Shown: positions 35,401-59,940 of the stretch, in pieces
Layout of the letters: each line of letters opens with the position of its first letter
How positions within the stretch are numbered: position 1 is the first letter of the stretch
Translations under genes and position numbers: made by a program
Notes under the pieces: model-generated
What the model was told of the DNA's origin: nothing
The model's database searches: none
Seen by the model: only the letters and a program-made list of their open reading frames with translations
Source of the DNA: a virus
Taxonomy: Duplodnaviria; Caudoviricetes
Virus record (IMG/VR): IMGVR_UViG_3300031994_000010
Coordinates: 1 to 64,000 of that record
Reading direction: 5' to 3' (one strand)
Length of the DNA: 64,000 nt

Positions 35401-37431
35401 AAATCTGTCTATTTAGTTATGCATAATGGCAAATTTATGCTCTGGAGATATGATCGCGGATATATGACTTTAAAATTGGCCGAAGCCGAGGGTATAGAAA
35501 TGAACATTCCTGAGGCCATTAGAGCGGTATTAGAAAGTGCTCCACAGACAAATAGAAGAGGTGGAAAACTTCAACAACTTCTTGAATTAAAAAGAAGAGG
35601 AGGAGTAATCAAAGCTCAACAAGGTATACAAATAAATCCTGGAACTTCTTGGTATGGAGATATATTCTCTACTTATAAACAACATATATTAAATCAATTA
35701 AAAACATATGGACAATCATATGCTGCCTGGTTAAATAGTATGTAGGATTCTCATTCAGCTATGTATAAAAAAGCTGGTGATAACTTTTTAAATGTAGCTT
35801 ATAATGGAGATCCTGATTCAGTAAGGAGTTATTAGTAGGATTATCTAAGAGATACTGTAGATGAAGCAGATGGAAGACATCCTTTAGGCTACAATGTAGG
35901 TATCGCAAATGCTGCTAAGAAAGGACGTTATAAAAGACTTGGAACTGCTGGTACTGGTACAGACTGGTCAACTACTAGTTATCAACCTGATGGATTATAC
36001 AGTGGAGAAACTGATGATAGAAGAATTCTTGGTAGACAAGGAGATTTTAGCGACGAATAGTTAGCAGAACTTCAGACGGAATTAAAACCCCATGGTTTTC
36101 ATTTATATTTAGATCCTAGTAATAATTATTATAAATTAGGTAGATTTGGAGACAATGGAGAATTAATAAGTCTAGCAGGAGACTCTTTAAACAATTTAGC
36201 TGGGCCTTAGAATCCCAGTTCTTAGAATCCCACTGCTCCTACTGAAGGAGGTAATCCTCAACCACCTAGTTTAGCAACTCCTGGAATTAGTGGAAGTTAG
36301 GTAACAGGAGATAAATAGGCTTAGGGTGTTGATTTAGACAAGTATAGACTACAAGAAAATCTACCACAATTATTAAATACTAGTATGTCTATTGCTAGTA
36401 TGTTGGGTAATATAGGTACAACTAATAGTAATTATAAAACAGCTGTACAAGCTCTGCGTCAACTACGTTTGCTTGATCCAGCATAGAAATATCATCAAGT
36501 TATGGATGATTACGCTGGAAATTAGTTAGCTGCTAATCAAGCTGCTACAGTAAGGAACAGAGCTAATAAAGCAATCTCTTCTGATAGAGCATTTAATGAA
36601 GCTAGAGCATTAGAAGGTGAGAATAAAGCTCTGGATTTAGTGAGACAACAAGCTACTTAGGACTAGAAAATTAGATAGTAGCATGCTTTAACGGCTGAAC
36701 AGTATGGAAATGAAAATAGAGCAGCACGTATTGATGTTGGTAATAAGAATGGTTAGTTAATGTATGATTTAGCTCAAAAGTTAGGTAATGCTGAATAGTC
36801 TAAGCGTTTAGCTAACTGGACTTCTATTGATAACTTTATAAAAGAAAATATTTTCAAAGGTTAGCAAAAGCTCGATAAGAGAGAGGCTATATTAGAAAAT
36901 TGGAAAGCACAAAGACTTGGTGGAAGAAATGCTTGGATTAATAGAAAACTTCAATCTGATCCAGAATATCTACGAGCACTATCTGAGTATGAAAAAATTA
37001 GCAAAAATACCGATGCTACTGAAGAAGAAAAACTTGCAGCAGTTAAAAAAGTTAGACAACGAATAGCTGAAGTATAGTTAGAAGCAGGTAGAGGTTGGGA
37101 TTAGGAATATGCTAAATTATATGGACTACCTTATTATGAATATGATGACCCATTTGAATAGGCACTATCTATATACTAGAGATATAATAGTCCAGTAGCT
37201 AGTGTTACATCTCAACAAACTCCCACAGGAACTCCTGTACTTAGAAAAGGTGGAGTATTAGATGCTTAGGTAGAAGCTTTAAAAAGTATTAATTCTAGAG
37301 CTAATTCTTAGGACGTTACTGAACGTGAAAGACTAAGAGCTAGAAAAGCCGATGCAGATAGATTTATGAAATCTATTTGGAAAGCTATGGATATGTATAT
37401 ATAGCAAACTAAAAATCTAAATAAAAAATGA
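32440..37431 (+). CDS. Large putative cargo/ejection protein with hydrophobic helices, ~1663 aa
   Basis: Track ORFs 33085, 33844 and 35419 share one frame. TM-like segments IALIASFVPVYGTAIAAAASL and LLTNAGLAALGLLPGG. Internal RRGG/AQQG motifs. Confidence 0.65.
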
Positions 37432-39344
37432 GAATTAAAATACGAAAATACTAGTAGGGTGGAGGTGTTATGGCCTCCATCTACTAGCCAGTCACTACAA
37501 CTTCTGGAGCTTCTGGAGTTAATACAGCTCAGTACGCTATAAATCTATTAAATTCTGGAACAACAGGAGGAGGAAGCTCCTCATCATCGTCTTCTTCTTC
37601 TGATAAGGGGAAAATTACTGAAAAAGATTTATATACTGGGTTATATAAAACTATAGCTGAACAAGGGTTGATTAGTGACTCACAATATATAATTAGTCAA
37701 TTATAGAATGATTTATTTAATGAAAGTTTAACAAATCCATTTGGAGATACTTCTGATTTAACTGGAAGATATATGAAAGCTTTATCTTATGTAAATATGG
37801 CAAAGTCTAATTAGAAGTTATATGACGAAGCATATAAATAGGCGGTGTCTAAGGACAGCCTGCACGAAACTGCCGTTACAACGGACGGTAAAGTTGTAGT
37901 AAAAGCTAGAGATGGACAAATTACTATGATTAGTCCAGAATAGTATAGAAAAAATCCAGGTAATTACACCCTAATGACTAATGGAAATCTATTAGCTGAA
38001 AGAATGAATAATCCCAAAATGGCTTTCTAGAATGGAGTATTTGGGGTTGTTCAAAATGGTACTTCTATAAAAGAAATTTCTCAAACTATAGATGCCTTTG
38101 TTAAAAACTTAGGTGAATAGGAAGGTTCCGATGAAAAATTAACTGATGATATTAGAATACAAGATGGTATTCATACTTTAAAATAGGCAGTAGCAAAACA
38201 AGGAGTTGAACCAGTTATATCAGCAATATAGAGTGGAAATTTATATAAAATAGGAATAACTTCAAAAAGCAACGTTGAAAATATACAACTTGCTATTGAA
38301 TCTATATATAATATTCTTCCAGAAAACCAAAAAACTTTATTAGAATTACGTGGAGGAAAAGCTGCTTTAGCTGGATTAATTTCTATTTAGACTAAAGAAT
38401 CCTTTAAATTCACTATAGACGAACAATCTAGTTCTGATAAAAAAGATGGAAAATCAGGAAAATCTGGAAGTGGTAAAGGAGAGGCTGAACTAAATTACGC
38501 TGAAATTCTTTATCATGGAGCTAATGAACCAGAACTAGTATAGTTTGGAATTAAAAATAGTGTAATTCAAGCCATGGGAAGACGTTCTCGTATTACAAAT
38601 TATCAAGGAGAGTCTTTAGGTAGTGATTTTTCTTACTCAGAACTATACAAGTCTTAGGTTGGTAGTGTGTTAAAATTTGATTAGGCAAGTTTTGGAGATG
38701 TACCAATTAATAAAGCTCTAAAAGACAGAATTATTATTGATAATGATGAAATTGTAGGGGTAGATTTACCTTATAAATAGCTTTAGGATGGACGAATTGT
38801 TCCAAACTTTGAACTTCTTACTAAAATAAGGGAACTTGACGATAAAATCCTTTAGCAAGGATTGTCTCCAAGTAATCCTTCAGATATATCCAAGATAAAT
38901 CAGATGTATAAGGATGCGGGTTTACCCATTAAATATGCTCTTAATGGTAGTGGATAGATTTAGTTAACAAAAAATTACAAAAGATTTGCAGCAGTTTAGG
39001 CTACTGCAGATGAAGAAGCTTTAATTGGAGGATACTCTGTATCTAACCCTACTTTAGAAGTAGTAGAGGATGAGAATGAATAGGAAGAATATATAAGGCG
39101 AGTACGTGAAATAACTAAAGATAAAGAGTTTAATCTAGATAAACGAGGATTATTTAGTTTTGGAGACAGGCATTTAGTTAGAGGTACTATTTTCATTCCA
39201 ATAGGAGGTAGTGCTATTGACGCTAGAATGGCTAGTAGTAGTGGTAAAGTCACTGGAGGAACTACTGATTATGATACTATTAGAGGTAGGGACTACGCTA
39301 GGCAAAATTATGTTGTACCAGAAGAAACTAATTTGACACCATAA
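37428..39344 (+). CDS. Putative cargo protein, ~638 aa
   Basis: Starts MRIKIRKYQQGGG (QQ = TAG TAG), followed by a Ser/Gly linker. ATGA and TAATG junctions. Confidence 0.65.
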
Positions 39345-42300
39345 TGGAAAAACAAAATGATTACTTTATAAATTAGCTGTATAATCCTACATTTATGGCA
39401 GGAGACTTTCAGAATGTAGGATTAAATACAACTAATACCACAATATAGGATAAAGAAGTTTATAAAAAATTAGATGTAGTCTAGAATAATGATATGTTCT
39501 AGACTAATGGTAGCTTTGATGAAAATAAATTTAATGCATTTTATGAAAAAGCTTTATTAGGTTATAATGATTTATCTGGAAAAGATCATGCTGAAAGATT
39601 AGCTACTACTTATTCAGCATTTAGAACTGATTTATTCGCTACCTCTTCACAGAATAGAAGTACAGGGCCAGAAACTTTAATTACTAAAATAGCAAATCCT
39701 GAAGGAAATAGTTTAGGATTCGTAAGTAGAAATATAAAAGGAGTTCAAAGGCTTTCTGTTAGAGAAAATGCAGAAGCTCATTTATTTTATGATGGTGCTA
39801 CTAATACTTGGAAGGAGTCCCCAAATAACACAAAATTAGACAACTTTATAAATCCAAAAGTATTAGCTTAGTATGATGAAGATGTAGATATAAATGGTAA
39901 AGTTAGAGGATAGGCAGGATTTGACCCAAATAATATACAATATCATAAAGGGGATAAAAAAATAAATCCAATTACTGGAGAATACTATTATGAATCTTTA
40001 AATGGTCGTTCTATTTATGGAAGAGATGTTTTATCCGGTTGGGACACATTGACTGTGGATGGTTCTACTTTTAACTAGTATGATTTTTTTGATTCAGATG
40101 ATTTAAATAAAAAAACTAGAGGCTCTTTACTTAAAGCAGCAGTCAAAGTTGCTCCTGCTTTAATTTCAAATATATCTCCTTGGTATATTGGAGCGAGGTT
40201 AGCATTATCTTCTGCAGACTTAGTAGCTAAAATAGGAAAAATGCTTCCTGGAGTAAGTAGTGATAATAAAGTATTATCATATTTAGAAGGATTAAATGCA
40301 GCTTGGACCACTTCTACCTCAGATGATGCTTAGTAGCACGCTTGGAAATTAGAAAATATATTTAATCTTGGTGCCGATGTGTTTACTTAGCTAGCAGAAC
40401 AACGTTGGATATTTCAAAGAGCGGGGGCTATTAAAAATGGTAAGTTAGCTTATGATAAAAAAGCCCAAGAAAAATATGTAAAAGAACTTGAAAAGAAATG
40501 GTTTGACAATTTCTCTGGAAAAATAGAAAGTAGAGAAGACTTGTTTGATCTTCCGGCAATGGCTAAATTCGAAGCACAAGCAGCTTTAGAAAGAAAACTT
40601 AAATCCACTGAAAAACTAAGTGAGCAATTATCTAAATTATATATGACAGGAATAACTGTAGCAGATTCATTTAGTGAGGCTAAAGAGTCTGGATTAAGTG
40701 ATGCAGAAGCTGCAGTATTTACTTTAGTTTATGGTTTAGGAGAATATGGTATTCTTAGTACTAATTTAGGAGAACATATTCTTCCAGAATTACGTGCTAA
40801 TAAAATTAGATGGCAAAATATTGCAAAAACATTAGCAGGATTTAAAGAAGAAGCTAAAGGGGATAGTAGAAAGTTTTATCAAAAGATTGTAGATTTTGCT
40901 AAATAGACAGTTGTTGGTGATTATAACGATTCTAAAATTGCTAGAGCATTATCTACTGGAGGAACTAAGAAAGCTTTTGCATTTTCTATGGCTTCTAACG
41001 CTTTGGGAGAAGGTTTAGAAGAAGTATCAGAAGAAGCTTGGTTAGATTTAGCAAAAGGACTATACAATGCGGCTGCTGATATGCATATGACCTAGACTGG
41101 AGCTACCTTCCAAAATAATGGCGGTCTAGAAGAAATGTTGAATAGATATGCCATGAACTTTGTAGGAGGTTTAGTAGGTGGAGGTATAGCAGTTGGACTA
41201 CCAGGTTTTTAGTAGGGAATTAAAAACATGTTAGGAACCAACATGGATACTAAATAGGCATATCAAGAATTAGTTTCTCTTATAAGAAATGGTGAAATGG
41301 AGGATTTCTTAAAGACAATAAAAAAACTAGAATTAAACGACTCTACAAAATCCGCAACATAGTATGAAATATCGGACAATAAGATAATGTATAAGCCAGG
41401 AACTGAAACTGATAATCAAAATAAAGCCACTCATGATATCTTAGAACACGCTGTTAGAATGATAAATGATTTACTAACAGTAAATGGGGCAAATATATCT
41501 GATGATTCAATATTAAAAAATCTAACCTAGGACGCTCAAAAACTATTATAGTTTCACAGAGTATTAGGAAATGATGCAGTAGGTTCTTCTGTTTTAGCTT
41601 CCTATGTATAGGATTATAATACATTAGCCACTTAGATAGCTGATATAGCCCTTAAACTTGATGCATTGGAAAATCCAGCAGTTGACTAGGAAGGTAAAAA
41701 ATAGGCTATTACTGCACAAAACTAGTAGGAAATTACTACTCTCAAAAATAAATTAAATAAATTATTAGAATAGAGAGACTTATATATTAATGGAGGAATG
41801 ACCAAATATGCTCTCCCAGCAGCTATATTTGAGATGTCAGACTTCATATCCAGTCCATACTTATCTACTAATTTTAAACAATATATAGAGAAAGTTGAAG
41901 GAAAACCTTTGGAAGAGTTATCACCTGAAAGAGTTTTAGAACTTAAAGAACAATGGAAATGGTATAAAGAAACTTAGCTTTCTGATGATATAAGAACAGC
42001 TCACGGTTATTTTTAGGAAATTCAAAAAAGATTCTCTAAAAATTTAGAAGAATTTAATCAATTATATTCTAAAACATAGAATGCTTTAGGTAATTTAAGC
42101 ACAATTTTCTAGAGAACTGAAGAAGGAATACTGAATACTCCTGGATAGTTAGCAGAAGATATCTAGGCTAATGCTTAGAGTTATGAAGTTGATGCTATTA
42201 ATAGAAGAGTTTAGCCAAACTCTAAAATTAATGGAACTATTAAAACAGTTCGCTCTTTAGTTACAGCTTTACAAGAACTTAATCCTGAAGATGAATCTTT

Positions 42301-45300
42301 ATAGAAGATTTAGGAAAAGTTAAACTTTTTAAATCTTCCTCCAACTGCTAAAGAATTAAATGCTGATTAGCAATTAATAGTATTAAAGTTAGCTAAGATA
42401 TTGACTCCAGACTTAAATGCTATACAAGATTCAGTATTTAATGCTTTACGAGCTATATAGAATACTGATCCAGCAACTGTTTCTTAGGAAACTATTCTAT
42501 CTACATTAAAACAAATTAATCCTGAAATTAAAGAGCTTAATCAGGAAAACTTAGATTTATTTAATTAGGTAAAAGCCGCATTAGGAACTACTCCTTTACC
42601 TGCTGAACTTAGTAGTTTAGAATTAGAATAGTAGATGCAGTTATTAGAAATAGCTAAACAACTTAATCCTGAATTAACAGCAGTATCTGATGATTAGTTA
42701 AATACACTAAAAGATAGATATTTTAAAGAAGCTTTAATTGAAGCATTTGTAAAAAAGGATCCAGAAACTGATGATGTTAGTCTTAGAGAAGAAATTAAAT
42801 AGATAATTTAGGATATTCCTTATATGAATTAGGACCTAAAAGACTATTTAAAAACTGATTTACTTACTCAGTTGGAAATATATGTAGAACAAGAAAGTGA
42901 TTTGTTTGATACGGATGCTACAAATGAGGATTTAATTAATTTTATTAGGGTTATTGGTATGGAAATTGATAAACTTCCAACAACTCCTATAGAACAATTA
43001 GCTGATTAGTTTATGTTAGCTATTGGAGAAAATAGGTATAAATTATCTTAGTTAATCAAAGCATTATAGACTCAAATGAGAATTTCAGTTGGAAGTGATG
43101 CTATTGGAGAGTTTGGATATTCTGATGAAGTAGCAGACCAAATTGATAATGCTCTACAAATTTTATCACTTTTAGAAGCTCATGTACTAGCTTCTAGGTC
43201 CGATGGTAAAAATATTGGTAATATATTTGGATATAATGTAGTAGTTAACAAATTAATTCCAGAAATGAATTTAGCTACCATAGACAAAAATACTGCTAAT
43301 GTAATTATGTAGGATATAGCCAAACTAAAATCTAAATTACTTTATTATTAGGGTATTTTTAAGGTTAATTCTGGATAGAAACTTTCAGAACAATCTAAAA
43401 TTAATATAAAATTAAAAACAGCATTTGTCAAAAGATTAAAAGCTATAATATCTATTTTGCCGGACGACTGGGAAAAACAAGATGAAAATGGTGTACTTCT
43501 TTTAAGTAACCTAAAATCTATTTTAGAAAAATGCTCTACAATTAATGACATATTAAATAGTTCGGAATCAAATAGATTTTAGTTAAATCCAGAAAAAACA
43601 AAAACATTCGAAAAAGAATATTTAGAAATAAGTGATGCTATTTATGATTTATTTAATTAGAAGGATAATTTAAAGAGGATACAAGATGGAGAACTAGATT
43701 CTTTAATGGATTAGTTGGTATTATTACCTTCTACAACAGGAGATTCAACTACTTTTGATGGTACTAACGTAGATCTAAACTTAGAAACTATTGATGACAG
43801 AAGTTTTTTATGGATGTTAATTGCAAATGCTTCTGTTAAAACTTCTGATTTTTATGCGGAATACATAAAGAGTATTAGTGATAAATATGCTCCTATTCCT
43901 GGACAAGAATTAGCTATTAAAATGGGTTATTCTTTCCTATTAAATCGTCCGATGTTTTAGGCATTTGGAAAAGCTTACAATAAAAAATTCTTGAAAGAAT
44001 TAGAAACTATAGATTCCGATTAGTTAACGATTAAATATGGAAAAGGGGCAAATAAAGACGCAAAGCTGGATAGTGATTATGCTCTTTAGATGCTAAACAC
44101 TTTCTTAGTAGAAGGAATACCAGGAGCAGGTAAGAGTACTGGATATTATTCTATTTTAATAGATATGCTAAAATAGAATCATAAAGAGTTCTTAAGAAAT
44201 GTGTGGGTAGTTCATACTGATGCTACTAAAGCTGCTAAATTTGCAGAAAATATAGGATTAGAAGCAGCAAATGTTACAGCTCTTGATAAAAATTAGTATT
44301 TAAAAAAAATTTGTCCAGACTATTAGTAGCCAACAGTAAAAAATGGAGTAATATCTTTATCTATAAATGAACTGCAAACTGATCCAGAAACCAATTTAAA
44401 ACATTATAAAAATGAAACTCTTTCATAGGATTCTAATATCCCAACATTAATTATAATGGATGAGTCTACTAGATTCTCTTAGTAGGATTTCTTATTATCT
44501 GAAAAATATTAGCAAGAACATGGTGTAGCATCTTTAGCTACTGGTGATTATGATTAGTTAGGAGCATTTGGAAGTACTAAAATTGATGACAAAACTACAT
44601 TGGTATTTAAAACTGCTTCTGATAATTTTGTCCATAGTCCTAAACTTGGTACATCGATGCGTACAGATAATAAAATAAAGGATACTAATATTCAAATTCT
44701 TAGGTCACAAAGGCTTTCTACAGTTAACGCTTTAACTAATAAGGATACTCCTCAACCAGTTTTATTAAATTATTATGAATCAGATGAAGGTTTATGGGGA
44801 GAGAAAATAGTCCCAACAGCATCTGAGTAGGATGTAATTAAATTACTCAATACCTTAAAGGATGGTGAACAATTATTATATATATACTTTAATGAGGATT
44901 CTGATACATATAAAATAATTGATAAGTTATCTAAAGAAGAAGAATATAAAAATAAAATAGTTAAGAAATCTAGTTCTGATTCTTAGGGAGATGAAGCTAA
45001 ATATGCTATTATTGAGACTCTACCTATTGAACAAAATAAATAGAGAGACGATTATGAGTTTGTATATAGTTCCTTCTATACGGGTGTTACAAGATCCAGT
45101 TAGGGAACTTTAATAGTTAATACTGGTGATACTAGTATATTCTAGACAACTAAAGTAAAACAATTAACTAAAAGCCCATTATCTAAGCAAGCTATTCAAT
45201 AGTATGCAAATACTAGAAAAGAAATATTATAGAGTTTATTAACTGGAAATGAAAAACCGACTACTATAATTGGAAAAAAACCTGATACACCTAATCCTCC

Positions 45301-48142
45301 ACCAAATCCAGATGTAGATGACTAGGATACTCCTACTACAGATACTGGTTCTAGTACTACTGAAGATGAAGCTGATACCTTAAATAATAACAAGGTTATT
45401 ACAGTAGAAAATGGTGATGATACTTAGTATAATATGTTACTACATTCTATGCCTATTAGTGAAACAGGATTTGAGTAGGATAGTTCTGGATTAGTAGCAT
45501 CAGAATCTTCTAAAGATAGGATAGATAGTTTAAATGGTCTTATAAAACTTGGAAAATATAGGGAACCAGGTTTAATTGATTTATCTTTAGCTAGTGATGG
45601 AAAGCATCTAAATGATGAACATAATGCTTTGAAAATTTTAACATAGTTGACTCAATTATGTTTATATGAGAAAGATCCAGACAAAATTAAAGCTGGATTT
45701 TCCAAAATCTTGAATCTAAGAAGTGATGTAGATTTCGGTATTAATTTTGGATATATGTCTTGGGGAGAACGTTCCGATGATTTAAACTCCAAAGACCCAA
45801 AATATAAAAGATTCTTTAGGGGATTAAGAGAAAAGTTATATGGAGTATTTACTGGAACTAAATATAAGGATAAAGATATAGCCGCTCAGAGACATGGAAT
45901 TGTTGCAAACCTTTATATTAGAGAAAAACTAGCAAATGGAAAAACTAATAGAAGAATTGTAACTACATTGCCTTTATCTATATTTACTTCTCCTCTTACA
46001 ATGTTAGACACTAAAGGATTTGAGCGTTTTAAACTCTTATTTAACACTATGACCGGAGATTTAGGTCATAGAATGTAGAGTTTTAAAGACTTATTATCTG
46101 ACGAAACTGAATTTAATAATAGAATATCTAGATAGCCCGGAATTACTTAGGAAGAAATAAAGGTAGCTAAGGCTAATAGAGTAAAATTATTAAAACATTT
46201 CATACTTTATACATCTTGGCAAGATTAGATAGCTCTTTTCCCAGATGATTTTGTATTTGCACAATAGTTTTAGCCTTTAGGACCAAATATTACTACTAAA
46301 GATAAAGGTAACGAATATGAATAGCCTAGTGAAATGTTTGTTTGGAAAGGTGAATATATGAGTCTTAAAGACGTCGATCAAAGTATTCATCATATTTCTA
46401 AACACGTTTATTATACTACTGAGGATGTAGTTATTAATGGTAGAACGATAATTAAAGCAGGTCATGGGTTTGTTCTTTGTTCAGATGTTGAAGAAGCTGG
46501 TAATGAACGAGAATTATTAGAAAAATTTGTTGAAGAAGAATTAAAAGATGAGCCTGATGGTAAAATATCTTTACTTTATACTAGTTCTCCAGGAGTAAGT
46601 ATCGATGAATATTTATATAATTTCGCTTAGAGATATCTAAAAGGACAAGTAAACAAGGATTTTGGTAACTATTTAACTGATATTAAATTAGCTTCTGCTA
46701 TAACAAAAGATGACTCTGAATTTTCTAAACTTATGGAAACGAGTCTTAAAGTAGACCTTCCAGATGGAAAAACTATTGATGATTTGGATCCAAAAGACGA
46801 AGTTCGTTTAAAAATAGAAAGATGGAGTACTTTTAAAGCCGTAATGCGTAAAGTTGAAGCAGACTTAGAAGGTAAACCTTTTGAAGAACAAAAGAAACTT
46901 TTAAGTAGTAAAATGTCTGATGAATATTTAAGTATTCTTGACCCAGCTTTGAGAGGAAGATATAAGGATCCTAAACTTACTCTTAAATCCTTCATACAAC
47001 ATCAAATACTTTCTTATGCTTTAAAACCAAGAGTTTTTAGTAAACTACAAGATATAGTTGGTGAAGGACGTTTAATTGTTACTGAGGAGCTAAAGCCTAG
47101 ATTAGAAGCAATTACAAAAGATACTGCTGATATATTTAAAAATGGCATCTATGTTAATTTAACTGGTTTAGGTAGCGATAATAGTATTAATGTCTCTAAA
47201 AATGTAGCTGTTACCTTTGTTCCTGTTAGACATAATGATAAATATGAAATTGAAATAAATAGAGTATGGAAGCCAATTAGAATAAATGGTAAAATAGATA
47301 CTACAATGCACTATGGAGATGTTTCTAGTTTAATGGATTATATATTAGATGGGATTAATAAATTCGATGGATTAAATAAAAAACGTTATTTCGGTGATTG
47401 GGTAGAATCTTCTAAAACAGGAGAAAATGAAAGTACTTAGTTATTTGAAAATTCAAAAAATAAGTTTGATAACAATTCTTAGGATATATTAAGGGATTTA
47501 TGTAAAAATTATACTAAAGATCTTAAAGACGTTCTAAGCTCTAATGATGTTCAGACTCTGTGTAGTTTCTTAGCTAAACATAACTTTTATGTTAGTATTA
47601 ATACTGATAAAAAGATACATCTTAGAAAAGAAAATTCTGGAAGTTTTATCTAGGAATTTGTAACTGGTAAAGACAATAAAGGCGGAGTATTAGTATTTAA
47701 GAATAATAATGTATATTTGAGTACTCCTTCAGCATTAGTTGAACTATCCAAAGAAGATGCCTAGAATTATATTGATTCTGTAAAAAATTAGCAAATCAAG
47801 GATGTTTTATAGGAAATAATTAACGCTAAAGAGCCTGGCAATGAAGGAGGTGGTTCTACTGATGGGACTTTTGATGTTAACTCTAATACATTAGGGGATC
47901 AAGAATAGGTAGATGCTTTTATTGCTTATCTTAAAAGTTTAATTTTAAGTAATGGAAAGTCTGTATATTAGACATTAATGGATGATTATAACTGGATTGA
48001 AGTAGATTTTACTTTTGAAAATATTAAAAATAACGTAAAAGATGGCCTTAGTATAAACTTGGATGAGATTGCGTCAAAAGATAATTCCCTCAATGAAGAA
48101 TTTGACGACTTAAAGGACTGGGCACATAATAAATTATGTTAA
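39344..48142 (+). CDS. Giant virion-type protein with SF1 helicase domain, ~2932 aa
   Basis: Track ORFs from 40541 to 46733 are all in one frame. N-terminal NALGEGLEEVSEE ejection-protein-like motif. Helicase motifs GIPGAGKST, LIIMDES, GDYDQL, SQGDE and YTGVTRS. Confidence 0.8.
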
Positions 48143-48154
48143 ATATAAAATAAT

Positions 48155-51100
48155 ATGCAATATTGTAATATATCTTATAATTTACTTTCAGGGGTTTTTA
48201 CTTAGTGTAAAACTCCTGAAGGTAATTTTAACTTAGAACAATTTAAAGAGAAGATAAAAGACTTAAATAGTAATATAGATGATACTAACGGAATTTCTGA
48301 AGACAAATTTATACAAGTATATAAAGAAGTATTAGCTAGTAGAAATTTTAGGAATTTTATTCTTCCTCTTTTGACTCGAGATTAGAAAGAAACTTTAAAC
48401 AACTTAGAAAATATTAAAGCTTGGGCACATCCTAAAACTGAAGTAAGTGATCCAGTAAGTAATTTGGAATAGCCATCACTAGCTTCTGAAACTTCTTTAA
48501 CTAAAGTTTCTACTAAATGGTTAAACGCTGCTTGGGGATATAATACTCAAGCATTGGATGCTTTTTTAAGACAAACAAGGAGTGATTTCAACGACATTAT
48601 TTCTAAAAAAGGAGTAGATATAACAAATTAGACATCTTTAAATCTAGCTATACAAAACTTTTATAGAGAAAAATTATATTCTATAGCCAATTATTTATCC
48701 TGGGCAAGTAAAGATTTAAAAAAACCTGAATTAGAGGAAGATGCAGCTAGACTAAGATAGTTAACAGAAGGTTTATGGGGTTCCACATAGTAGACTAATT
48801 GGGTAAAAATAAAGGGAATATTAGATACACATTTTTCTACAATAAATGAAAATTTATTTAGGTATTATACTGGTAAGTATGTATCATCTAGAGAAATTCG
48901 ATTATAGAAGTAGATGAGGGCCTATGGTGACTATTTAATGATTTAGCCTACTAATTTTGACTCTTTGATTCGTACTTAGTTAAAAGGAATTAGAATAAAT
49001 CATAGTCCTGGCAAACTTACTTAGTTTGTAAACAAATACATATACGAAAAAACTAGTAGTATAAACACTTGGCAAGAAGAAGATTCTTATTCTATAGCCA
49101 GAGGGGTATCAGATTTATGCTAGGTTTCTGTTATGTCCTGGAAAATGTGGAGAAAACAAGGTAATACTTGGGTAGAGTCATCATTTGAGCATCCTGCAAA
49201 TATTGCATAGGTCTTTACTACTATGAGTAAAATTTATAAATTAGGAAGCTCTCCAAAGGCCAAAAATATTATAATAGACTCTTCATATTTAGGATATTTT
49301 AGGGATTGTGGATTTGACTTTGGTGAAAGTCTTGAAACTCAGAAAATAGATGGAACTGAATTTGTTATTCCAAGGTTAACCAATCTATTTAATAAATATT
49401 TTCAAGGAAAATCTTTAGCTGAAATTGTTTCTTCTATATAGTAGGATCCACTTAGGTTAACTCCAATGATTATGGCTTTATTAGCTCATCCAAAGTTAGG
49501 ATTTGAAACAACTTTTAAAAAGGATTATAAGGCCCCAAATGAATATGGATTTGATTCTAATGACCGAGCAATGGTTTATACCATATGGAAAAACATGTTT
49601 GATCCTAAAGAAAACTCCGTAAATAATCCTGTATTATACACATTTTTAATGTAGTCATTCCTTACACATGATATGAAATCTATGTATGGAATTAAATTTA
49701 AGGATGGAGAACCTAAAAAAGCTTATTATTCTTAGGGAAAAACTGAAAAGAGTCTTAATAATTTATAGTTAAGAATAAACGGATTATATCCTCCAACTTT
49801 AGAAAAGAAGTTTAAATATGCCGAAATAACTACAGACTTAGAACATAATTTAGTTACTATTAAAAGTGGGGATTTTTCTATCCAAATTAAAAATGGAAAA
49901 GTCTCAGTATTTCATAATCGTCAAGAAATAAAAAATAATGATAATGCTTCTTAGGTAAACTTACAAGAAGCATTAGATACATTAACTCCATTTTTCCAAG
50001 AAGCTTTGGCCTTAGACTTTAGTACTAATGTTGAACTTCCATTAATGGAAGCATATCTTGGAATATTAAATGGTTCTAAATATACTGCATTATCAAACTT
50101 AGCTAATATTACAGGTCAATTGATATATGCTTATGAGGTATCTAAACAATATATAGATGAAGATAATTCTTCTGATTTCCTGTCTAAAGTAAGAGAACAC
50201 TATGATAAAAAAGACAAAATAAATCTAGTTAATGGAATAACTGACTACTAGATAGATGTTTTTAAAAATATATTTGCATAGGTATATTTATTATCATTAG
50301 CTAATGATGCTCATAATAAAGTAGTAGGAGAAGCTATGGTTAAAGATGGTTTTGGTAATCCAATTAGTTCAGAAGTATTAACATCTTTAACTACTAAATA
50401 TCCACAATTTGTAGGAGAAAAATGTAGTGGTGATTCTATTATAAAGGATTTTTCTCTTCATAAAATCTTAAAAGAAATTTCTTTCTATAGAGATTATGTA
50501 GATGCTTCAGGTAATATAAAAGCTGCAACAGGAATGTCTGTAGAAGAATTGTTTTTATCTAACTTTCTTTATGGATTTTATTCTCCGAGTAATACATAGG
50601 AAGTAATGCTTGGAGTATTCTCTGATAAACCTAATTTAGGAAGAATTGAATTATACAAGGATCAAACTGTCGAAGTTAATGGTCAAAGTAAAAACTTAAG
50701 TTCCCTTACTATAGCAGAAATAAAAACACTGGCAACTAAAGAACTTGGAGAGTTTTATCTCAAAATGTACAATAATATGTAGAAATAGTTGAACATATTA
50801 AATAAATATTTGCCTGCAAATATACAATTTAATATGGATACAGACTATTCTGAAGTTAATGCTGCTGGATATACAAAATCTTAGCTGTTAGACTACATCC
50901 ATTAGGCTATTGTGGCTGCATAGAATAATGGAGAAGATATTCAAATCAATGATTTACTGTATTTTTATTGGGACAAGGATTAGGTACATGTACGTCCTAC
51001 TATAATTGCAGAATTATATAGAGCTGGATATATTTAGAACACAGAATTTTGGAATAGTAAATTAATAGGTTTAGAAACTGATTAGGACTTTTGGTTCAGA

Positions 51101-54100
51101 AAAGAAACAGAATTTGTAACAAGTTTGTTATAGGATTTACCTAGAGGAATTTCTTTAGTAGATTCAAATGGTGAACCTATGAATTCTGAATCTATGAGGT
51201 TATTATTAGAGAATAATCCAAGAATTGCATATAAAGATGGTAAACCCGATTTTAAAACTGGTTGGGCAACTAATAGAGCACTTATCTTAGGAAAATTTTT
51301 ATATGGGGATGAAGTACATATATTAACAACTAAGGAAGATTTAAAATCTTGGCCTGTATATAGAAATACTTTAGAATATATTAGAGATTTAGGATTAGAT
51401 ACTTCTGAATTTGATATTAATGATAGATTTAATTTAAAAAAATTCCTAAGCTTTGTAGCTGCTAATTATTAGTAGGCTGCAGAACATCATAAATATACAA
51501 GAGCTAAATCTTTAGCAACGAAGTTTTTAACTGAGTATTATAAAAACCATATTAAAACTTTAACTAAAAATCAAAAACAAGAAGTTGCTGATAATTATAG
51601 AAAATTTATCTTAGAAGGAATAGAATTAGGATATTACGATAGATAGTTAGAAGCAGAGGGATATACAAAAGACGATTTTGAGGGATTTGTTTAGGATAAA
51701 ATAACTAAGAGAATGGAAGCCTATGAAGAAGAGCCTGCTAAGATGATTAGTGCATATGCACATGCTGTTGCAGAGTCAACTCCGATGGAATCTATTCAAG
51801 ATATTAAAAAAGCTATTCAAAACAAACGTCCTTAGAATAAAAATAGTTTAGAAAATACCCTATTGACGAATCTTAAAGAAGAACTAGACAAAAAGGATAG
51901 TATTTTAACAGACTTAAAGTTTGAAGTAAATCCTGAGTTAGCTAAATATAATACTTTAGGTTATATGGCATCTGAAGAAGGATTAAATAGCCTTGTTGGA
52001 TCTCATGTTAATCATGAAGTTAAAGGTCCTTATAATCCTAATGTTGTAGAACTAAATTCAGCTGAAGTGTCTGCCTAGTCTAAACGTAATGTATCGTTAT
52101 CTTCTGCAAAAAACTAGTATTTAAGAACCGACCCACGAGGAGTTGGAAAAACCTGTAACTTAGCTATTATAGAAGATACTTATGGACATATATCAACTAT
52201 TAATGGTATTGAAGATAAAAAAGGTACAAAACCTCAGGATGGTGCAACATATGGAAACTACATATATAGAAAACAAGAATTATTTTCATTAGGCTCGCAA
52301 AGAGCTGGAATAGATAACTCAAAGCCTATTGGAAATGATCTTAATCCAGACACAGGAACTGGTACTATAGTAAAAACTGCCGTATTTGTTCTTACTAATC
52401 AACGAATCAGAACTTCTAAAAGGAATATAGATTTACATAGAAAAATGAACCATATTCCTTGGAAACATACTAAAGGATTTAACGGAGATTATCTACATGA
52501 TTATAACGGTAATGAGATTAACTATAATAAAGTCTTTATTTATAAACCTTCTACTGGAAAATACTATCACCGAACTAATTTTAGAATATTGACCGATGGA
52601 AAAACTTAGTTTGATGAATATGAAGTACCAAGCAACTTTTCAGAATTAATGAAAGCTGGTGCTAGTATGAATAACATTTTAACTAACAAGATAGAAAGAA
52701 CTACATCTAGACCTGTAAACACCAATTATGAGTTATGGGATTTATTTGGTGGTGCTTATTCTGCACATATTAATCCAGATACTCTTGAATTGGAATACGC
52801 AAATGATAATACTTCATTAGAAAATGTATATATAGCTAGTTATAATGTTGGAACAGTTCTTGGAAGTGGTTAGGTAATTACAGATGAAGATGTATATTTA
52901 CCAATTAGAGATTCTAAAATAGATTGGGTGGTTACCTAGGGTGCTATTAAACATGGTGCTACTAATGTTAACTATGGTGGTAGTAGAGCTATAGAAGATC
53001 CAAATTATAAATTAACTACTCAAAAAATGAGTACCGCTGATGTAGGTATGTAGCTTAATCCAGAACATATTGCAGATAAATCTACTTTAACTTTGATGAC
53101 TCAGGTTATAAATGCTCTTGGTTTAAGAGGTTATAGTAATATAGAAGCACATAAATGTTATAAAGCTCTGGAATCTTTAACTAATATATGTTTAAAAGAA
53201 GTTTTTGAAGGAATTGGTATTGATGTTGAAACTGGAAATTCTTAGGAATTTAAAGATGCTGTAGCTACAATAGTATTAAAATCTTTAGCTAATACTAGTC
53301 CAACTGGCGGGGATTTATTATCTGCAATAGTAGCATAGCTGGATATGAGCGGAAATGTGGAGCATGCTTATGATGTTATACGTTCTAAGTTACCAGTTAG
53401 TGATCCAGCTATAATGCATAAATTCATAAGCAATATTAATGCTACTATGACTAAAGCTGGAATTAGAATTCCTATGCAAGGTATTATGGATGTACTTGTT
53501 CCTTCAGATGGAATTTACAAAATACATGGAGGGAAAATTAGAAATATAGCTAATACTTCTAAATATCCTGGATAGGATTCCTTAATAACTTTAAACAAGG
53601 ATGAATTATCAGAAAAAGAATTTGAGTTATAGCAATTAAAAGTCCTTCAAGAGGAAGCAGATACACATCCTTTATAGTTACATGAAATAACTATAGGAGC
53701 TTCTTATTATATATAGATAACTAGTCCAGATGGAGAAGTGACTAAATCTTCTATATCAACTAAAATAGATGATAAATTTAGTTACTATAGGTTACGCGAT
53801 AAATTAAAAGACTATGTAGATGCTGGATTTAAATGTAATTTAATAGAAGATGTAATAAAAGGTAGAGAACTTTCGTCTTATGATGCACAATGGCGAGATA
53901 CTAAAGGGTTTAATTATAAACTTTGGGACTTAGAATCTACTTATTACTTAACTAATTTATTAAATGGTTAGGCATCTCAATATTATAATTAGGTATTACA
54001 AAATCCAAATATTTTATCAGAAGTTTTTCATGTAAACCCAACAGCTATAAATTTAGATTCTGAAAAAGAGTTTGTTAACAGTTTACAAAAAGCTTTAAGA

Positions 54101-57100
54101 GCTAATTTATAGAAGGATTTAAATAGTATAGGTAGTGGTAATAGTACTGGTGTAAGAGTTCTTAGAAATATTAATGACTCTTCTTCTGAAAAAGAATTCA
54201 TTACTATTTAGGTAGCAAAAAATAGTACAAAGGTAAAACCTTATGAATTAATTGCTTCTAAAACATATGCTACCACTTTTGGTTTACGAGTTGGTGATGA
54301 CATTTCAGAAATAGTAAATGATTCTAATTTCTTCTTAAAGAGATTACTAGAAAATAAGAAAGAAAATGTAGCTCCTACAGATTATGATTTAGCCTTACGG
54401 TCAGTTTCGGGCAAAAACTATTATATTAGATACAAATGTTAGTATTCTAATACTAATGGCTTAAGTAACTCTCCACTTAGACTAGACACAGAATGGGATG
54501 GAAATACATTGTATAGATTAGATTCAGATTCTGGAAAACGACTATATAAGATTCCATATCATTATGATGATAATCATAGAGTAGTTATGGATATTTAGGT
54601 ATATACTGATGTAAATGGTCATGAAATTATATACACTAATAGATTATCTGAGATACTGGATTTATTTTCTTATTCTTATATAGATTTTGGTTCTCCTACT
54701 GTAAATGATAAAAATGAATAGAAATTTTTAGAAATTTTAAAAGTTTTAGAAACAGTTGATAAGAATTCTGTTAAAAACTTAGTAGAAGCAATTAAAACTA
54801 GTTCTTAGGAATCTAATCTTCCAGCAGTTAATATAATAAAAGAACTTACTACTGCTAAAGAAAATGAATTAGCTAAGTTAAATGCAGCTATTTAGAATAA
54901 AGAAAAAATATCGTTCTTAGAATATTCTCCAGTTACTAGACAATTAATAGCTTCGGGAAATGAATTACATACTTCCTTCTTAGAATCTTGTCATTATCTA
55001 GTATCCAGAACCCCAGCATAGTCTCACCAATCCTTTATGCCTATGGTATTAATAGGTTTTGATGAATCTGGAGTAAACTCTGCTTATGTAAGTAGATATT
55101 AGTTATATTTATAGGGTTCTGACTTTGACGTAGATAAGGCTTCTTTATTAGGATATGTTTTTAATTCTGGTAAATTTGTTACTTGGAGTCCATTTATGAG
55201 CCTAGCTTATTAGGAAATATTTGATGCTTCTAAAGATTTACCTTTCCCTACAGGTAATAAAGTATAGGTTGGAGAAATAACTAGTGATATATATGATTCT
55301 ATAGATAAACCTATTAACATTAATGTATGGGAAGATGATTATGTCGAATTTGAAATCTCTGGACAAATAATTTCTATATAGAATTTGGGTGATAATAAAT
55401 ATTTAATAAATTCGCCTAACTATAATAAGTTGAATAAACTTGATAAATTCTTAATTAAAAAGGCTATATGGGATAAATTACCAGAAGGAGCAAATATTTA
55501 GACAACTATATCTGATTTCTAGATAGGATTTACTAAAAATTCTGAAACTGAGTTAGGTTTTACTTATACTAAGTAGGGAACTTATGATAATTTAAGTTCA
55601 TTTAATGAGTTTATAGATGCATATGCTGACCTATATACTAAAGAAGGCAGATTAAAGAAATCTCCAAATAATATTAGGCGATTAGCTCAACTATTTGACA
55701 TTCTTAATAATTTTGGAGTTATTCCACCTGCTGAAGATAATTCTTTATTAAGTTTTATTTAGAGAGATTTTGATGCACATAATACTTATTTTGAAAAGCA
55801 TTCTGATGCAAAAGATGCTGCAATAAACTATGTTAGTTCTGCTGCATTTAAAGTATCAGCTGACCCTGTAAATAATATTTAGGCATCTACTTCTGTGGAC
55901 TTCTAGACTGGAATAGTTAAAACTCTAGCAAATCAATCTAAGTTAGCAGAATAGTCTAGACATTTTGATACTGGAAATGAAATGTCTAAATTTAGGCTTA
56001 ATAAATTAACATTATCTGGTAAATCAGATACAGGTATTGAAGCTTCTGCACTTAAAGTATATGAAGCTGAATATTAGTATACTTGTCATGTTTTAAATTT
56101 TGGAACAACTTAGGAATAGCATGAGTTACTTTCCGATGCTAGACTGTTAGGAAAGTCTATGCCTTTAGTAGCAAATGCTTTTGCAAAGAATATAACAAAT
56201 ATTAAGGATAAAGATATTTATGATATACTTTAGGAAGTAGATTAGTCAGAAGATGCTGTTATTTGGTTAAGTGCATTTTTAAGTTTATCTACTGATAATG
56301 CAAAAGACCCCACTTTAACTAAGATTAATGCTGACCCAGAAATGATTGGCTTATATAATGCTGGATTTATTCTTGGATTACCTATTGAAACTCTAATTCG
56401 TACTATTAATTCTGATACTGGGCGTATTTTGGCTGAAGTCTAGAAAGGTAATATCTTAACTAACTTAGATGGCCAAAGTATGGTTACTGGTGCTCTTAAT
56501 TATCTACGAAGAGGACCTAACCTTTCCTATATATCTAGCATTACGTCTATTACTGATACTATTGATACTGCATTACAAAACGCAGGATTAAAGTCTGATA
56601 ATGAAAAAATAAATGGGCATAACTTAATATCTTATTTGTTAGGAGGACAACGAGATTTACCTGCTATTTATACAGCCAAAAATGTTATAAGTGCTTTAAG
56701 ACAAACAATCTACGGAGATTCTGAAGTTGATGTAATTAATATTAATTAGGCAATTAGAAATAGACTAAATAGTTAGAAACGTTCATTAAATAGACTGGAC
56801 AGATAGATAATAGGATTAGAGAAGGTTATTGAGGAGTTAAAAGCCAATAAGAAATCTACAAAACGTCTTGAAAATAAAATAACTAAGTTATCTGAGGATA
56901 AAGCTAAGTTATAGAATAGTATAGATTAGTTAGTAGATATAACTGAAAATTTAAGACTAACAGGTGATGTTGGAACTGGCTCTGGGGATGAATATGAATA
57001 TGCTAAAAAGTTATAGAAAGATATTGCAAAAGCAGAGCAGGCACATTCTAGAATAACTGGAACTACTGTTAAAGGAATTATTGATAACATGCATTCCTTT

Positions 57101-58882
57101 AATAGATTATTATCAGATTTAGAAATATATTTAAATTATTTAGAAACTATTGCCAATGAGCCTGGGATTGTTGGAGAAAATGGAAGAGAGTATAACCTTT
57201 TGGATGTTATAACATAGTTAAACTATAAAGCTCAAGAAATGTCTCTATTAAGACCTTTACTTGGATTAAACTAGCAACTTCCAAATTCTTAGGAAGACTT
57301 CTTAGCTTTTGTTAATAATTTTGGTGAAATCATTAATAGTAGAAAAAAATTACTTGGAGATTTTAGTGCTACTGAATTAGATAATTTTGAGTCTTTAAAT
57401 GAAAGTTTGGGTATTTCAGGATTAACTGTAGACTTACATTAGTTTATATGGAACCCAGAATATTAGAAAGCAGCAATTGCAGCATATGGAAGTATAAAAT
57501 ATCAAGTAAACGTCTTAGATTGTATTACTAAAGTTCCTCATTATTTTGGATATTTAAGAACAGCTGAAGCTGCTTATAGAATTAATAAAGCTTTAAGTAT
57601 CCAGTTTAGAGATCAAGATATTATTCTACAAAAAATAATAAGAGGAGATCTTAAGGTTTATAAAAAAGCCGATGTAGCTAAGAGATTAAAATTAGCTTCT
57701 GCTTATTTAGCTAGAAGATTAAACAACGGATTTTTACAAAGATAGAATTTAACAATATCTATAGGAGAAAAGAACATAACTTTGGGTACTCCTGAAGGTA
57801 ATGATGCTTTTATACAATGGATGGAAAATGAAGTAATCCCTTAGTTAAAAGATACTTTTAGAAATAATGAATTCTTAAAAACAATAACTCGGGCTGCTTA
57901 TCATAAAGCAGATAGTAGAAATACTATATATCCATATACAACTTTAGTAGATAGTATGTCTCAAAGTGAATCCGAAAAGAGTTAGTATTACGCTGTTTAG
58001 TAGGGATTAACTGAACTCACTACTTTTAAAAATTCAAAATTTGGAAACATACCATATGTAGATTTATTCTTCTATTATGATTTAATTTGTTATAATAGAC
58101 AACCTGGAAGGTCCAGTTTAACTCCTCTATTTAATAGTTTAGTTGCATCTAGAAGAAGTTCTACTGTAAACAAATATATAGAATACGTTTCTACTTTAGA
58201 CTAGAGTAAACTAAGCTTGTTAGGAGAATTAGATGAGTCTTTAATAGATGAAATTGAAAGATACATAGCTCCAAATGTTTCTATATATGAACTTAATAAA
58301 TCTAAAGAAAAATATTAGTTTGTAAAAGACCCAGCTACTAAAAAGAATTATTTAGTTAGAACATTGGAAAAGTAGAGAAAATCTTCTGGTGTTCCTGATG
58401 AAGCATTAGATTCATTGTATGATGATTTAGAAGCTGATTAGTATTTTAGTTTAGATGATTTATCCGAATTTTCAGTAGAATATTCCGAATATACTAGAAT
58501 GCTTTCTCTTAGGGAAAAAATTAATAATGAATTAAGAGAACAATTTGCTTTAATAGATACTGCCTTAAGTAGATTTAATCCATATTTGATAACTGATAAT
58601 TCTATCTTAGGATTTGGAGAAATGGGCTTAGATATCTAGGTAAATTCTAATAGTGTTAGTATTCAAGGTACAACTGTTACTTTAGATGAAAATGGAAAAT
58701 TAACTAATACTTCAGAATTGTTTGAAAAACTCCAAACTTTAGCTAAACTAAACGGTCATCAAATTAATAGTATAAATGATATAATAGTTTCAAAAGTAGA
58801 TGTAACTAATAAGACCAAAGTTATAGATGTAGAAGAGACAACTAATAATATAAATAATTGTATGCAAAAATGTGAGATATGA
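48155..58882 (+). CDS. Virion RNA polymerase (crAss-type two-barrel), ~3575 aa
   Basis: SRTPAQSHQSFM followed by catalytic QGSDFDVDK (DFDVD at 55121-55135), and later LSTDNAKDP. All + strand track fragments from 49223 to 56480 share the frame. Confidence 0.85.
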
Positions 58883-59940
58883 TAGCTTGTGATATAAATA
58901 AACGTTCATTCAAATACCAGACATTGAAAAAAATGTCTGGTATTTCTGAATTTAATCTAGATAATACTATTACTTTATTTTAGAATAAATTTGGAAGAGA
59001 CCCAGAACTTGATGAATTACCAAGAGTAAATTCCGAACCTTATCTACGTGAAAAGCTTCCTATTAAGAACTATTCTTAGATGGAAGGAGTAAAAAATGAT
59101 GCTGTATTAGAATATACAAGTAGTGATACTATAGAATAGGCCAATATTACCTTAAATAACCAGTATAAAGATTTAGAAATAGAACTAACTCCATATTAGA
59201 CTTTTAGTGTAATAAATATTAAACATAGACCAACTACTACTTAGGATATAGTTGATCCAATCGACGTAGAAACTGATTTTTCTATAGAAAAAAGTAAAAT
59301 AGTTTTAACGAATCAGTTAAATAAATTACAAAAGTTATATGGTATAGATATAGTAGCTACTGATAGTGAAAAATTAAAAGAATTAGGTATACCTAATACT
59401 GATTTGGTTAAAGGAGTAATTCATAATGGAACTATTTATATTAATACTGATAATTCTACCATAGACACTCCAATTCATGAGTTAATGCATATATTTTTTG
59501 GAAGTATTAGATATACTAATCCTAACTTATTTTTTAGTCTAGTAAATTCCGTAGAACAATTACCAAGATATAATGAATTTGCATTATAGTTTCAGGGAAG
59601 AACTAGAGGGGATGTTAATGAAGAAATATTTGTTTAGGAATTTGCTAAATTTTTAACTGGCGCTCCAAGTTTATTTGATAAAGTTTCTGGGATTGACAAA
59701 ATTCTTTATGAAGTACTAAGAAATATTGATTCTTTAATTTCTGGAAATTATAGTGTTAAATCTATATAGAGTGGAATCTTTGATAAATCTGTACTTGAAT
59801 TATCTAAAATATTAGAATCACCAATAGTAAATAATTGTCAATATGGGTCTTTAACTCTAGATACTTTACATAGAGTATTAGCTAATTATAAAGAAGATTT
59901 AATTTCAAAGGGTAAACTAAAAGAAGAATGTTATGGCTAA
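58879..59940 (+). CDS. Zincin-like metalloprotease protein, 353 aa
   Basis: KGVIHNGTIYIN...DTPIHELMH (59476-59490)...EEIFV. Confidence 0.78.

Follow-up and report, generated by a model that had tools for sequence, protein, structure and literature searches.

How the RNA polymerase (RNAP) of a crAss-like phage obtains a single-stranded template from a double-stranded genome is a question that a helicase could answer, and it is raised by a locus of a large gut crAss-like phage in IMG/VR virus record IMGVR_UViG_3300031994_000010 (Duplodnaviria; Caudoviricetes). The window analysed here is the stretch from position 1 to 64,000 of that record, 64,000 nucleotides (nt) in all. At 39344..48142 (+ strand) it contains a giant open reading frame (ORF) whose product of 2,932 amino acids (aa), here called P0001, possesses in its middle a superfamily 1 (SF1) helicase with intact catalytic residues, directly upstream of a candidate virion RNAP gene. 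A conserved and, judging from its residues, apparently active helicase in a neighbour of the RNAP within the cargo block is a concrete candidate for the template-opening activity, and a second, independent helicase-polymerase fusion in the crAss-like phage cr50_1 points the same way.

The annotation of such proteins as helicases is already known, in the form of pipeline labels: 'RecD-like protein' in Table S1 of the paper on phage Lera (PMC12386605) and the names of UniProt entries. The Lera paper contains no discussion of the protein (ORF 191) beyond this label. No discussion of a helicase domain, a RecD-like protein or an ejected helicase was found in the papers on crAss-like phages that were searched, the domain figure of Yutin 2021 aside.

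Helicase motifs and their conservation

The preliminary description had read a complete SF1 helicase from the translation of 44102-45120, and all six motifs are found there, in order and where it had placed them. All on the + strand, they are Walker A or motif I (GIPGAGKST, aa 1591-1599, 44114..44140), Walker B or motif II (LIIMDES, 44447..44467), motif III (GDYDQL, 44543..44560), a motif IV-like element (LGTSMR, 44645..44662), motif V (SQGDE, 44981..44995) and motif VI (YTGVTRS, 45077..45097). Conservation was determined from a MAFFT alignment of 169 homologous helicase domains, mostly 23-50% identical. G1594, G1596 and K1597 of motif I, D1706 and E1707 of motif II, G1734, D1735 and Q1738 of motif III, R1773 of the motif IV-like element, G1819, and R1917, the arginine finger of motif VI, are present in all 169 sequences (100%). 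G1591, G1882, E1884, Y1912 and T1913 are conserved at 96-99% (G1882 99%, E1884 96%, Y1912 and T1913 97-98%), and Q1881 of motif V at 88%. The glutamine of the Q-motif, Q1521 (43904-43906), lies upstream of Walker A, from which it is separated in P0001 by about 70 residues, and is conserved at 98%. That the catalytic residues are invariant in sequences otherwise so divergent argues for an active ATPase, and P0001 is predicted to be one.

Similarity searches based on sequence give weaker signals. The Pfam match of P0001 to AAA_30 (PF13604) is marginal (E 3e-6; 27.4 bits against a gathering cut-off of 27), and several homologues carry precomputed PF13604 or PF13245 assignments. A 32-sequence profile compared with the PDB sequences gives weak matches (E 0.004-3), mostly to SF1B proteins (Upf1/NAM7, nidovirus nsp13, RecD), but this range of scores also includes a few low-complexity and ABC-ATPase chains. 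No match to PDB sequences was obtained with a 14-sequence profile, nor with single-sequence phmmer for either P0001 or the 3,575-aa ORF that follows it. Searching phage records with the helicase region by tblastn likewise returned no match, although MT835470.1 and MT835492.1 hold orthologues that are detected by hidden Markov model; BLAST is too insensitive for the P0001 family.

Predicted fold of the helicase module

The helicase module extends from aa 1480 to 1960 (43781..45223, + strand). In an AlphaFold2 model based on an alignment of 32 sequences (predicted local distance difference test score, pLDDT, 89.7; predicted template modelling score, pTM, 0.89), it consists of an N-terminal helical bundle that includes Q1521, followed by two RecA-like domains. 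The top Foldseek matches of this model are nearly all of SF1B type (nsp13, DSH9, RecD2, RecD, Upf1, Dna2 and Dda), with E-values of 1e-9 to 1e-7 for nsp13, DSH9, RecD2, Upf1 and Dda. VIA, a search independent of Foldseek, gives Z scores of 21.8 for DSH9, 20.2 for T4 Dda, 18.1 for Leptospirillum ferriphilum Dda, 16.3 for Pif1 and 15.7 for RecD2; its other matches include SLFN11 (16.7), HelD (15.9), Rep (14.6), RecD (12.3) and UvrD1 (10.6), and Upf1 too ranks below the Dda-like enzymes. As structural neighbours, SF1B enzymes rank above those of SF1A (Rep and UvrD1). In the VIA alignments, DSH9 is matched over 308 residues with a root-mean-square deviation of 3.9, and T4 Dda over 296 of 439 residues, covering residues 31-446 of the model. 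Beta-hairpin insertions (strands 185-209 and 327-344) lie where the accessory 1B pin and 2B SH3/tower domains would be expected, in a comparison of the module as a whole that aligns about two thirds of Dda. The best viral structural match, from BFVD, is the part 2 model of UniProt A0A8S5RTY8 (E 1e-25, TMq 0.73).

By this model the module is an SF1B helicase of the Dda/RecD/Pif1 type. The tandem RecA fold that the preliminary description had named as a check is present in it, and together with the motifs, the 96-100% conservation of catalytic residues and the AAA_30 match it bears out the assignment of this region to the SF1 helicases. Identity with the RecD subunit of RecBCD, to which the database label would point, was considered and rejected: the neighbouring genes are cargo-like ORFs and an RNAP rather than RecB and RecC, and the match to RecD is weak (E 3; Z 12.3).

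Genetic code of the giant ORF

Under the bacterial code (table 11), TAG codons interrupt the region 39344-48142 and just short ORFs are found across 38-52 kb. When TAG is read as Gln (table 15), abutting giant ORFs appear on the + strand at 37428-39344, 39344-48142 and 48155-58882. The second of these is P0001, a single ORF with 93 in-frame TAG codons, a TAA stop and Cys as its last residue. Its length agrees with the figure of about 2,900 aa proposed earlier. Of the Gln codons, TAG accounts for 60% in P0001 and for 61% in the RNAP ORF. Across the + strand block 1-64777 of the full genome of the source phage (174,440 bp), TAG encodes 36-73% of the glutamines per gene, with a few TAG-poor exceptions, and TAG is essentially absent from the large genes for replication and metabolism between about 66 and 132 kb. 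Judged by this codon usage, heavy TAG recoding marks a late, virion-gene strand class, and P0001 belongs to that class. No tRNA genes were found in the 64,000-nt window.

A TAG-poor island lies within the TAG-rich late block, comprising 14828-15901, 16628-17545 and neighbouring genes to 21354, with 0-5 TAG codons each. The genes at 14828-15901 and 16628-17545 encode homing endonucleases (phrog_314, E 6e-23 and 2e-25), and the low TAG count of the island is what one would expect of mobile elements that arrived recently.

The P0001 family in Zeta crAss-like phages

In an exhaustive search of representatives, at least 192 clusters (50% identity) match the helicase-domain query at E <= 1e-3. Nearly all contain proteins of 2,600-3,500 aa with the helicase in mid-protein, at about aa 1300-1900, and 78 proteins from another search agree. 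Nearly all come from Zeta-group crAss-like phages, on contigs of 100-200 kb, and the source names of relatives are 'hypothetical protein' or lacking. An alignment-based scan of IMG/VR yielded 11 loci of three kinds, on contigs of 100-186 kb. In the IMG/VR relatives, as in MT835470.1 and MT835492.1 (unannotated GenBank gut phages), the helicase giant is followed by an ORF with a D[FY]DxD motif, and the equivalent gene of the relatives holds QGSDYDID. This downstream ORF is intact at loci L001, L003 and L014 (MT835492.1) and split at L013 (MT835470.1).

Zeta crAss-like phages are characterised by a large genome, recoding of stop codons in late genes and a gene order that runs muzzle, cargo, RecD-like giant, RNAP (Yutin 2021). 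By its genome size, the TAG recoding of its late block and its gene order, the source phage is assigned to this group on sequence grounds. The only AAA_30 match in its genome (E <= 0.01) is the embedded helicase, while MT835470.1 and MT835492.1 each possess the embedded helicase and a separate, stand-alone Dda-like helicase.

Split genes are encountered at several of these loci. In MT835492.1 (L014:19986-29260) the helicase giant is divided into ORFs of 1,542 and 1,556 aa, with the break right before the helicase; at L009:3-6372 the break falls inside the helicase domain, with a gap of 224 nt between the pieces. An intron, a frameshift or an assembly error may lie behind these breaks. The RNAP-like gene of MT835470.1 (L013:28883-39737) is in two parts, of 2,281 aa and then 991 aa with DYDLD, about 1 kb apart, and resembles the RNAP of phage Lera, which is split by a homing endonuclease.

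Other crAss-like clades and a second fusion

The distribution among crAss-like clades, another check named in the preliminary description, was surveyed by AAA_30 profile search of whole records from Steigviridae, Intestiviridae and Suoliviridae. The embedded type is found in Zeta and a fused type in cr50_1, and none occurs in Steigviridae. Of the Intestiviridae, cr8_1, cr271_1, crAss002 and a Carjivirus possess just a stand-alone helicase of 390-492 aa, distant from the RNAP. Of the Suoliviridae, cr10_1, cr4_1, cr113_1 and cr7_1 give no AAA_30 match above the cut-off, and cr50_1 (MT774375.1, L019:6237-20561) gives a strong one (E 1.8e-24) within a 4,774-aa polyprotein that joins a gp67-like part and the RNAP. 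This polyprotein (QOR58058.1) is annotated 'DNA helicase' and contains DFDID at aa 3154 and a Walker A motif, GYAGTGKST, at aa 4275, the helicase domain itself matching AAA_30 at E 4e-22. In cr50_1 a complete Dda-like SF1B helicase thus forms the C-terminus, after DFDID, whereas the helicase of P0001 belongs to a separate protein encoded upstream of the RNAP.

Aligned over its full length, the helicase domain of cr50_1 shares 25-29% identity with the stand-alone helicases of the crAss replication block, and BLAST finds no similarity between it and the embedded Zeta type. Judging from these comparisons, the helicase in the cr50_1 fusion goes back to the lineage of stand-alone crAss SF1 helicases, and the fusion is independent; it is probably younger than the Zeta one. 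As the two helicases come from different sources, the union of a helicase with the RNAP block has taken place at least twice.

Neighbouring genes and putative virion cargo

The gene order around P0001 is that of a crAss-type cargo block. Upstream, at 37428..39344 (+ strand), lies a 638-aa ORF with no family match, the positional counterpart of g068 (579 aa) of phage phi14:2. The next ORF downstream encodes the candidate virion RNAP (3,575 aa, 48155..58882, + strand, 98 TAG codons) and carries GSDFDVDK at aa 2321-2328 (about 55115-55138). This sequence is the catalytic loop of crAss001 gp50 (GSDFDVDK), and the corresponding loop of phi14:2 gp66 is GSDFDIDK. The claim that the helicase protein stands next to the RNAP is thereby upheld. 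There follow a 353-aa ORF (58879..59940, + strand), in which the zincin motif HELMH occurs at aa 200 and which weakly matches a PHROG metalloprotease family (phrog_87, E 1.5e-4), and a 1,614-aa ORF (59933-64777). The 353-aa ORF resembles the zincin domain of phi14:2 gp65, apparently now encoded by a small gene of its own. PHROGs has no family for P0001, the RNAP-like ORF or most of the neighbours.

The order of 638, 2,932, 3,575 and 353 plus 1,614 aa parallels g068-g067-g066-g065 of phi14:2 (579, 1,797, 2,180 (RNAP) and 1,421 aa), all of which are annotated from virion mass spectrometry, and P0001 is the positional counterpart of gp67. Like phi14:2 gp67 (1,797 aa) and crAss001 gp47 (2,341 aa), P0001 is encoded directly upstream of a DFDxD RNAP gene, or in the inverted equivalent of that position, and it shares with them giant size, a terminal Cys and neighbours with a zincin motif. 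Both gp67 and gp47 are proven virion components; unlike P0001, they contain neither a Walker A motif nor a helicase domain. Virions of crAss001 hold a cargo of about 5.5 MDa that includes three RNAP-associated giants and whose ejection probably involves unfolding. Taken together, the gene order, the zincin protein after the RNAP and the TAG recoding suggest that P0001 may be packaged and ejected as virion cargo.

Cys residues occur at the facing ends of consecutive products in this block: P0001 ends in KLC (48128-48142), the RNAP begins with MQYC (48155-48169) and ends in QKCEI, the 353-aa ORF begins with MIAC (58868-58893 for these two facing ends) and ends in EECYG, and the 1,614-aa ORF begins with MANC (59926-59947 for the last two). 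Phi14:2 gp67, gp66 and gp65 show the same facing-end pattern.

Other regions of P0001

Leaving aside the helicase, the family is best conserved in its N-terminal part of about 700 aa (39344..41500, + strand), which includes a Gly-rich hydrophobic stretch, FVGGxxGGG, at about aa 600-620. Hydropathy analysis shows no classical transmembrane segment (Kyte-Doolittle, 19-aa window, all peaks below 1.4). The following region, about aa 700-1470, is helical and variable. After the helicase comes an acidic, Pro/Thr-rich linker of low complexity (45270..45460, + strand), with a net charge of -14 across aa 1960-2060.

In the C-terminal region (aa 2040-2932, 45461..48139, + strand) about 720 residues fold confidently, with pLDDT mostly 85-95 for aa 2040-2760 (45461-47620), and the tail is helical and of low confidence; the mean pLDDT of the whole model is 77.9. 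Comparison with solved structures gave no clear match (best Foldseek E 0.046, to phi14:2 gp66 at probability 0.10; best VIA Z 5.6) for this 893-residue model, which was searched as one piece, so that matches to individual domains could have escaped detection. For aa 2040-2932 the ESM Atlas likewise yielded nothing usable, and Pfam, PHROG and the Atlas add no assignment in P0001 beyond AAA_30. To judge from the model, aa 2040-2760 may constitute one or more undescribed domains.

Role of the embedded helicase

Three functions had been offered in the preliminary description: pulling in the genome, opening promoters for the virion RNAP and displacing host proteins. In our analysis, template opening for the virion RNAP appears to be the best fit to the published biochemistry. 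Phi14:2 gp66 is injected and transcribes early genes, and the templates used in vitro by the recombinant enzyme are single-stranded or denatured DNA; QDE-1, a structural relative of gp66, depends on RPA and on a helicase, QDE-3 (Drobysheva et al.). Synthesis of P0001 would be confined to the late phase, when amber suppression operates, and the protein would be packed in the capsid with the neighbouring RNAP and the zincin protein. It would then be expelled into the next host, before or together with the DNA. There its ATP-driven motor would load onto the entering genome and unwind it locally, and this unwinding would provide the single-stranded template required by a crAss-type RNAP for early transcription. 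The whole chain, from late synthesis through packaging and co-injection to the supply of template, is put forward tentatively, and we judge it slightly more apt to fail at some step than to hold throughout.

Several points weigh against this chain. An SF1B motor requires a 5' single-stranded loading site, and we know of none on the entering genome. The Steigviridae phi14:2, crAss001 and cr108_1 have no AAA_30 helicase in the cargo block or elsewhere in the genome, and phi14:2 manages early transcription without one, so that a virion helicase is no general requirement. Neither the P0001 family profile (hmmsearch) nor BLAST detects significant similarity to phi14:2 gp67, crAss001 gp47 or the fused polyproteins, and hhalign of the P0001 family against a 6-member gp67-like alignment gives a probability of 33%, in a comparison that is limited by the extremely fast divergence of cargo proteins of the gp67/gp47/P0001 type. 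Finally, a folded helicase core of about 55 kDa would have to unfold and refold on its way through the tail, as has been proposed for the cargo of crAss001.

The cr50_1 fusion invites a closer coupling of helicase and polymerase. An SF1B helicase may have joined the injected RNAP module at least twice independently, once deep in the Zeta clade and once, from the replication helicase, in cr50_1, with the pair acting as one machine, a proposal that we regard as possible but rather doubtful. By unwinding the end of the genome that enters, the helicase would expose a single strand for transcription by the QDE-1-like polymerase.

Late expression is equally compatible with packaging and with a late role inside the cell. 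P0001 might accordingly be made late and left unpackaged, its helicase serving the producing cell, in the manner of Dda, in recombination-dependent replication, concatemer processing or the clearing of proteins before packaging, with the giant scaffold merely tethering it there. The nearest structures are indeed T4 Dda and Dda-like helicases, and the source genome has no other AAA_30 helicase (E <= 0.01), so that the embedded one could be its sole SF1 helicase. Such a role is nevertheless unlikely. MT835470.1 and MT835492.1 retain both a stand-alone and an embedded helicase, which are thus not redundant; the gene is fixed between a cargo-like ORF and the RNAP in all relatives examined; and it lies in the virion strand block, outside the replication block. 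A scaffold of 2,900 aa with a conserved terminal Cys would also be left unexplained in an accessory replication helicase.

P0001 could instead be injected as a DNA-import motor that sits in the ejectosome channel and uses ATP to reel in the 145-192 kb genome after the capsid pressure is spent. Enzyme-driven genome entry is established in T7 and N4. All members of the clade whose crAss-type genomes are largest (100-200 kb contigs) have the embedded helicase, the cargo blocks of the examined crAss-like genomes of about 90-103 kb are without a helicase except in cr50_1, and the N-terminal third, with its Gly-rich hydrophobic stretch, is highly conserved. That exception is telling, however: at 99 kb, cr50_1 also fuses a helicase to its RNAP, which links the helicase to the polymerase and not to genome size. 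As SF1B enzymes translocate on single strands, import would moreover entail unwinding of the genome, and P0001 has no predicted transmembrane segment. We consider an import motor quite unlikely.

Injection would also place P0001 where host defence first meets the DNA, and a counter-defence or clearing factor might strip nucleoid, restriction or Argonaute-type proteins from it, or cap its ends against nucleases of the RecBCD/AddAB type. Dda-type helicases are strong protein displacers, and the structural neighbours SLFN11 (Z 16.7) and HelD (Z 15.9) act on stalled nucleoprotein complexes. This function is improbable, given that the architecture is strictly kept over at least 192 divergent clusters, unlike that of anti-defence genes with their fast turnover, that the gene is linked specifically to the RNAP, and that Pfam, PHROG, Atlas and structure searches reveal no defence-related domain in the rest of P0001. 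That the domain has no motor activity and retains the helicase fold for a structural or nucleotide-binding purpose, as its strong divergence from studied helicases might suggest (27.4 bits in Pfam; best PDB match E 0.004), is scarcely credible, since the 100% conservation of the Walker A Lys, the Walker B Asp-Glu, the motif III Gln and the motif VI Arg among the 169 domains, 23-50% identical, is the pattern produced by selection for ATP hydrolysis.

If packaging holds, a helicase motor would be added to the known phage-injected enzymes. If helicase and RNAP do act as one machine, the phage would possess a virion-borne helicase dedicated to first-round transcription.

Comparison with known systems

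The closest annotated counterpart is ORF 191 of phage Lera (PV725988; 8,346 nt), the 'RecD-like protein' of Table S1 (PMC12386605), which is flanked by a 1,887-nt ORF on one side and the split RNAP gene on the other and is found downstream of the gene for the muzzle protein. Gene order and gene sizes in the window and in Lera agree gene for gene, as compared by table rather than by sequence, and the genetic codes differ, TGA being read as Trp in Lera and TAG as Gln in the phage of the window. UniProt contains further labelled entries, A0A8S5RTY8 ('RecD-like protein [Siphoviridae sp. gcode 4]') and A0A8S5TKT5 ('Helicase [Podoviridae sp. ctz6O13]').

With T4 Dda and Dda-like helicases (PDB 3UPU, 8JX6 (DSH9) and 9KWF), as well as with RecD2, Pif1, Upf1 and nsp13, P0001 shares the two-RecA core, and with the Dda-like SF1B enzymes it shares the motif set GxxGxGKS/T, DE, GDxxQ, QGxE and YTxxTR, at an identity of just 13-16%. 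Dda-like enzymes are free proteins of about 440 aa, whereas the helicase of P0001 is embedded at about aa 1480-1960 of 2,932. Its activity is predicted from the model, and, unlike theirs, its gene belongs to a late, TAG-recoded virion block. A functional analogy is offered by NPH-I and NPH-II of poxviruses. These nucleic-acid-dependent ATPases or helicases are packaged with the viral RNA polymerase and serve its early transcription, but they belong to SF2, work within the core of a virus of eukaryotes and share no homology with P0001 beyond the RecA fold.

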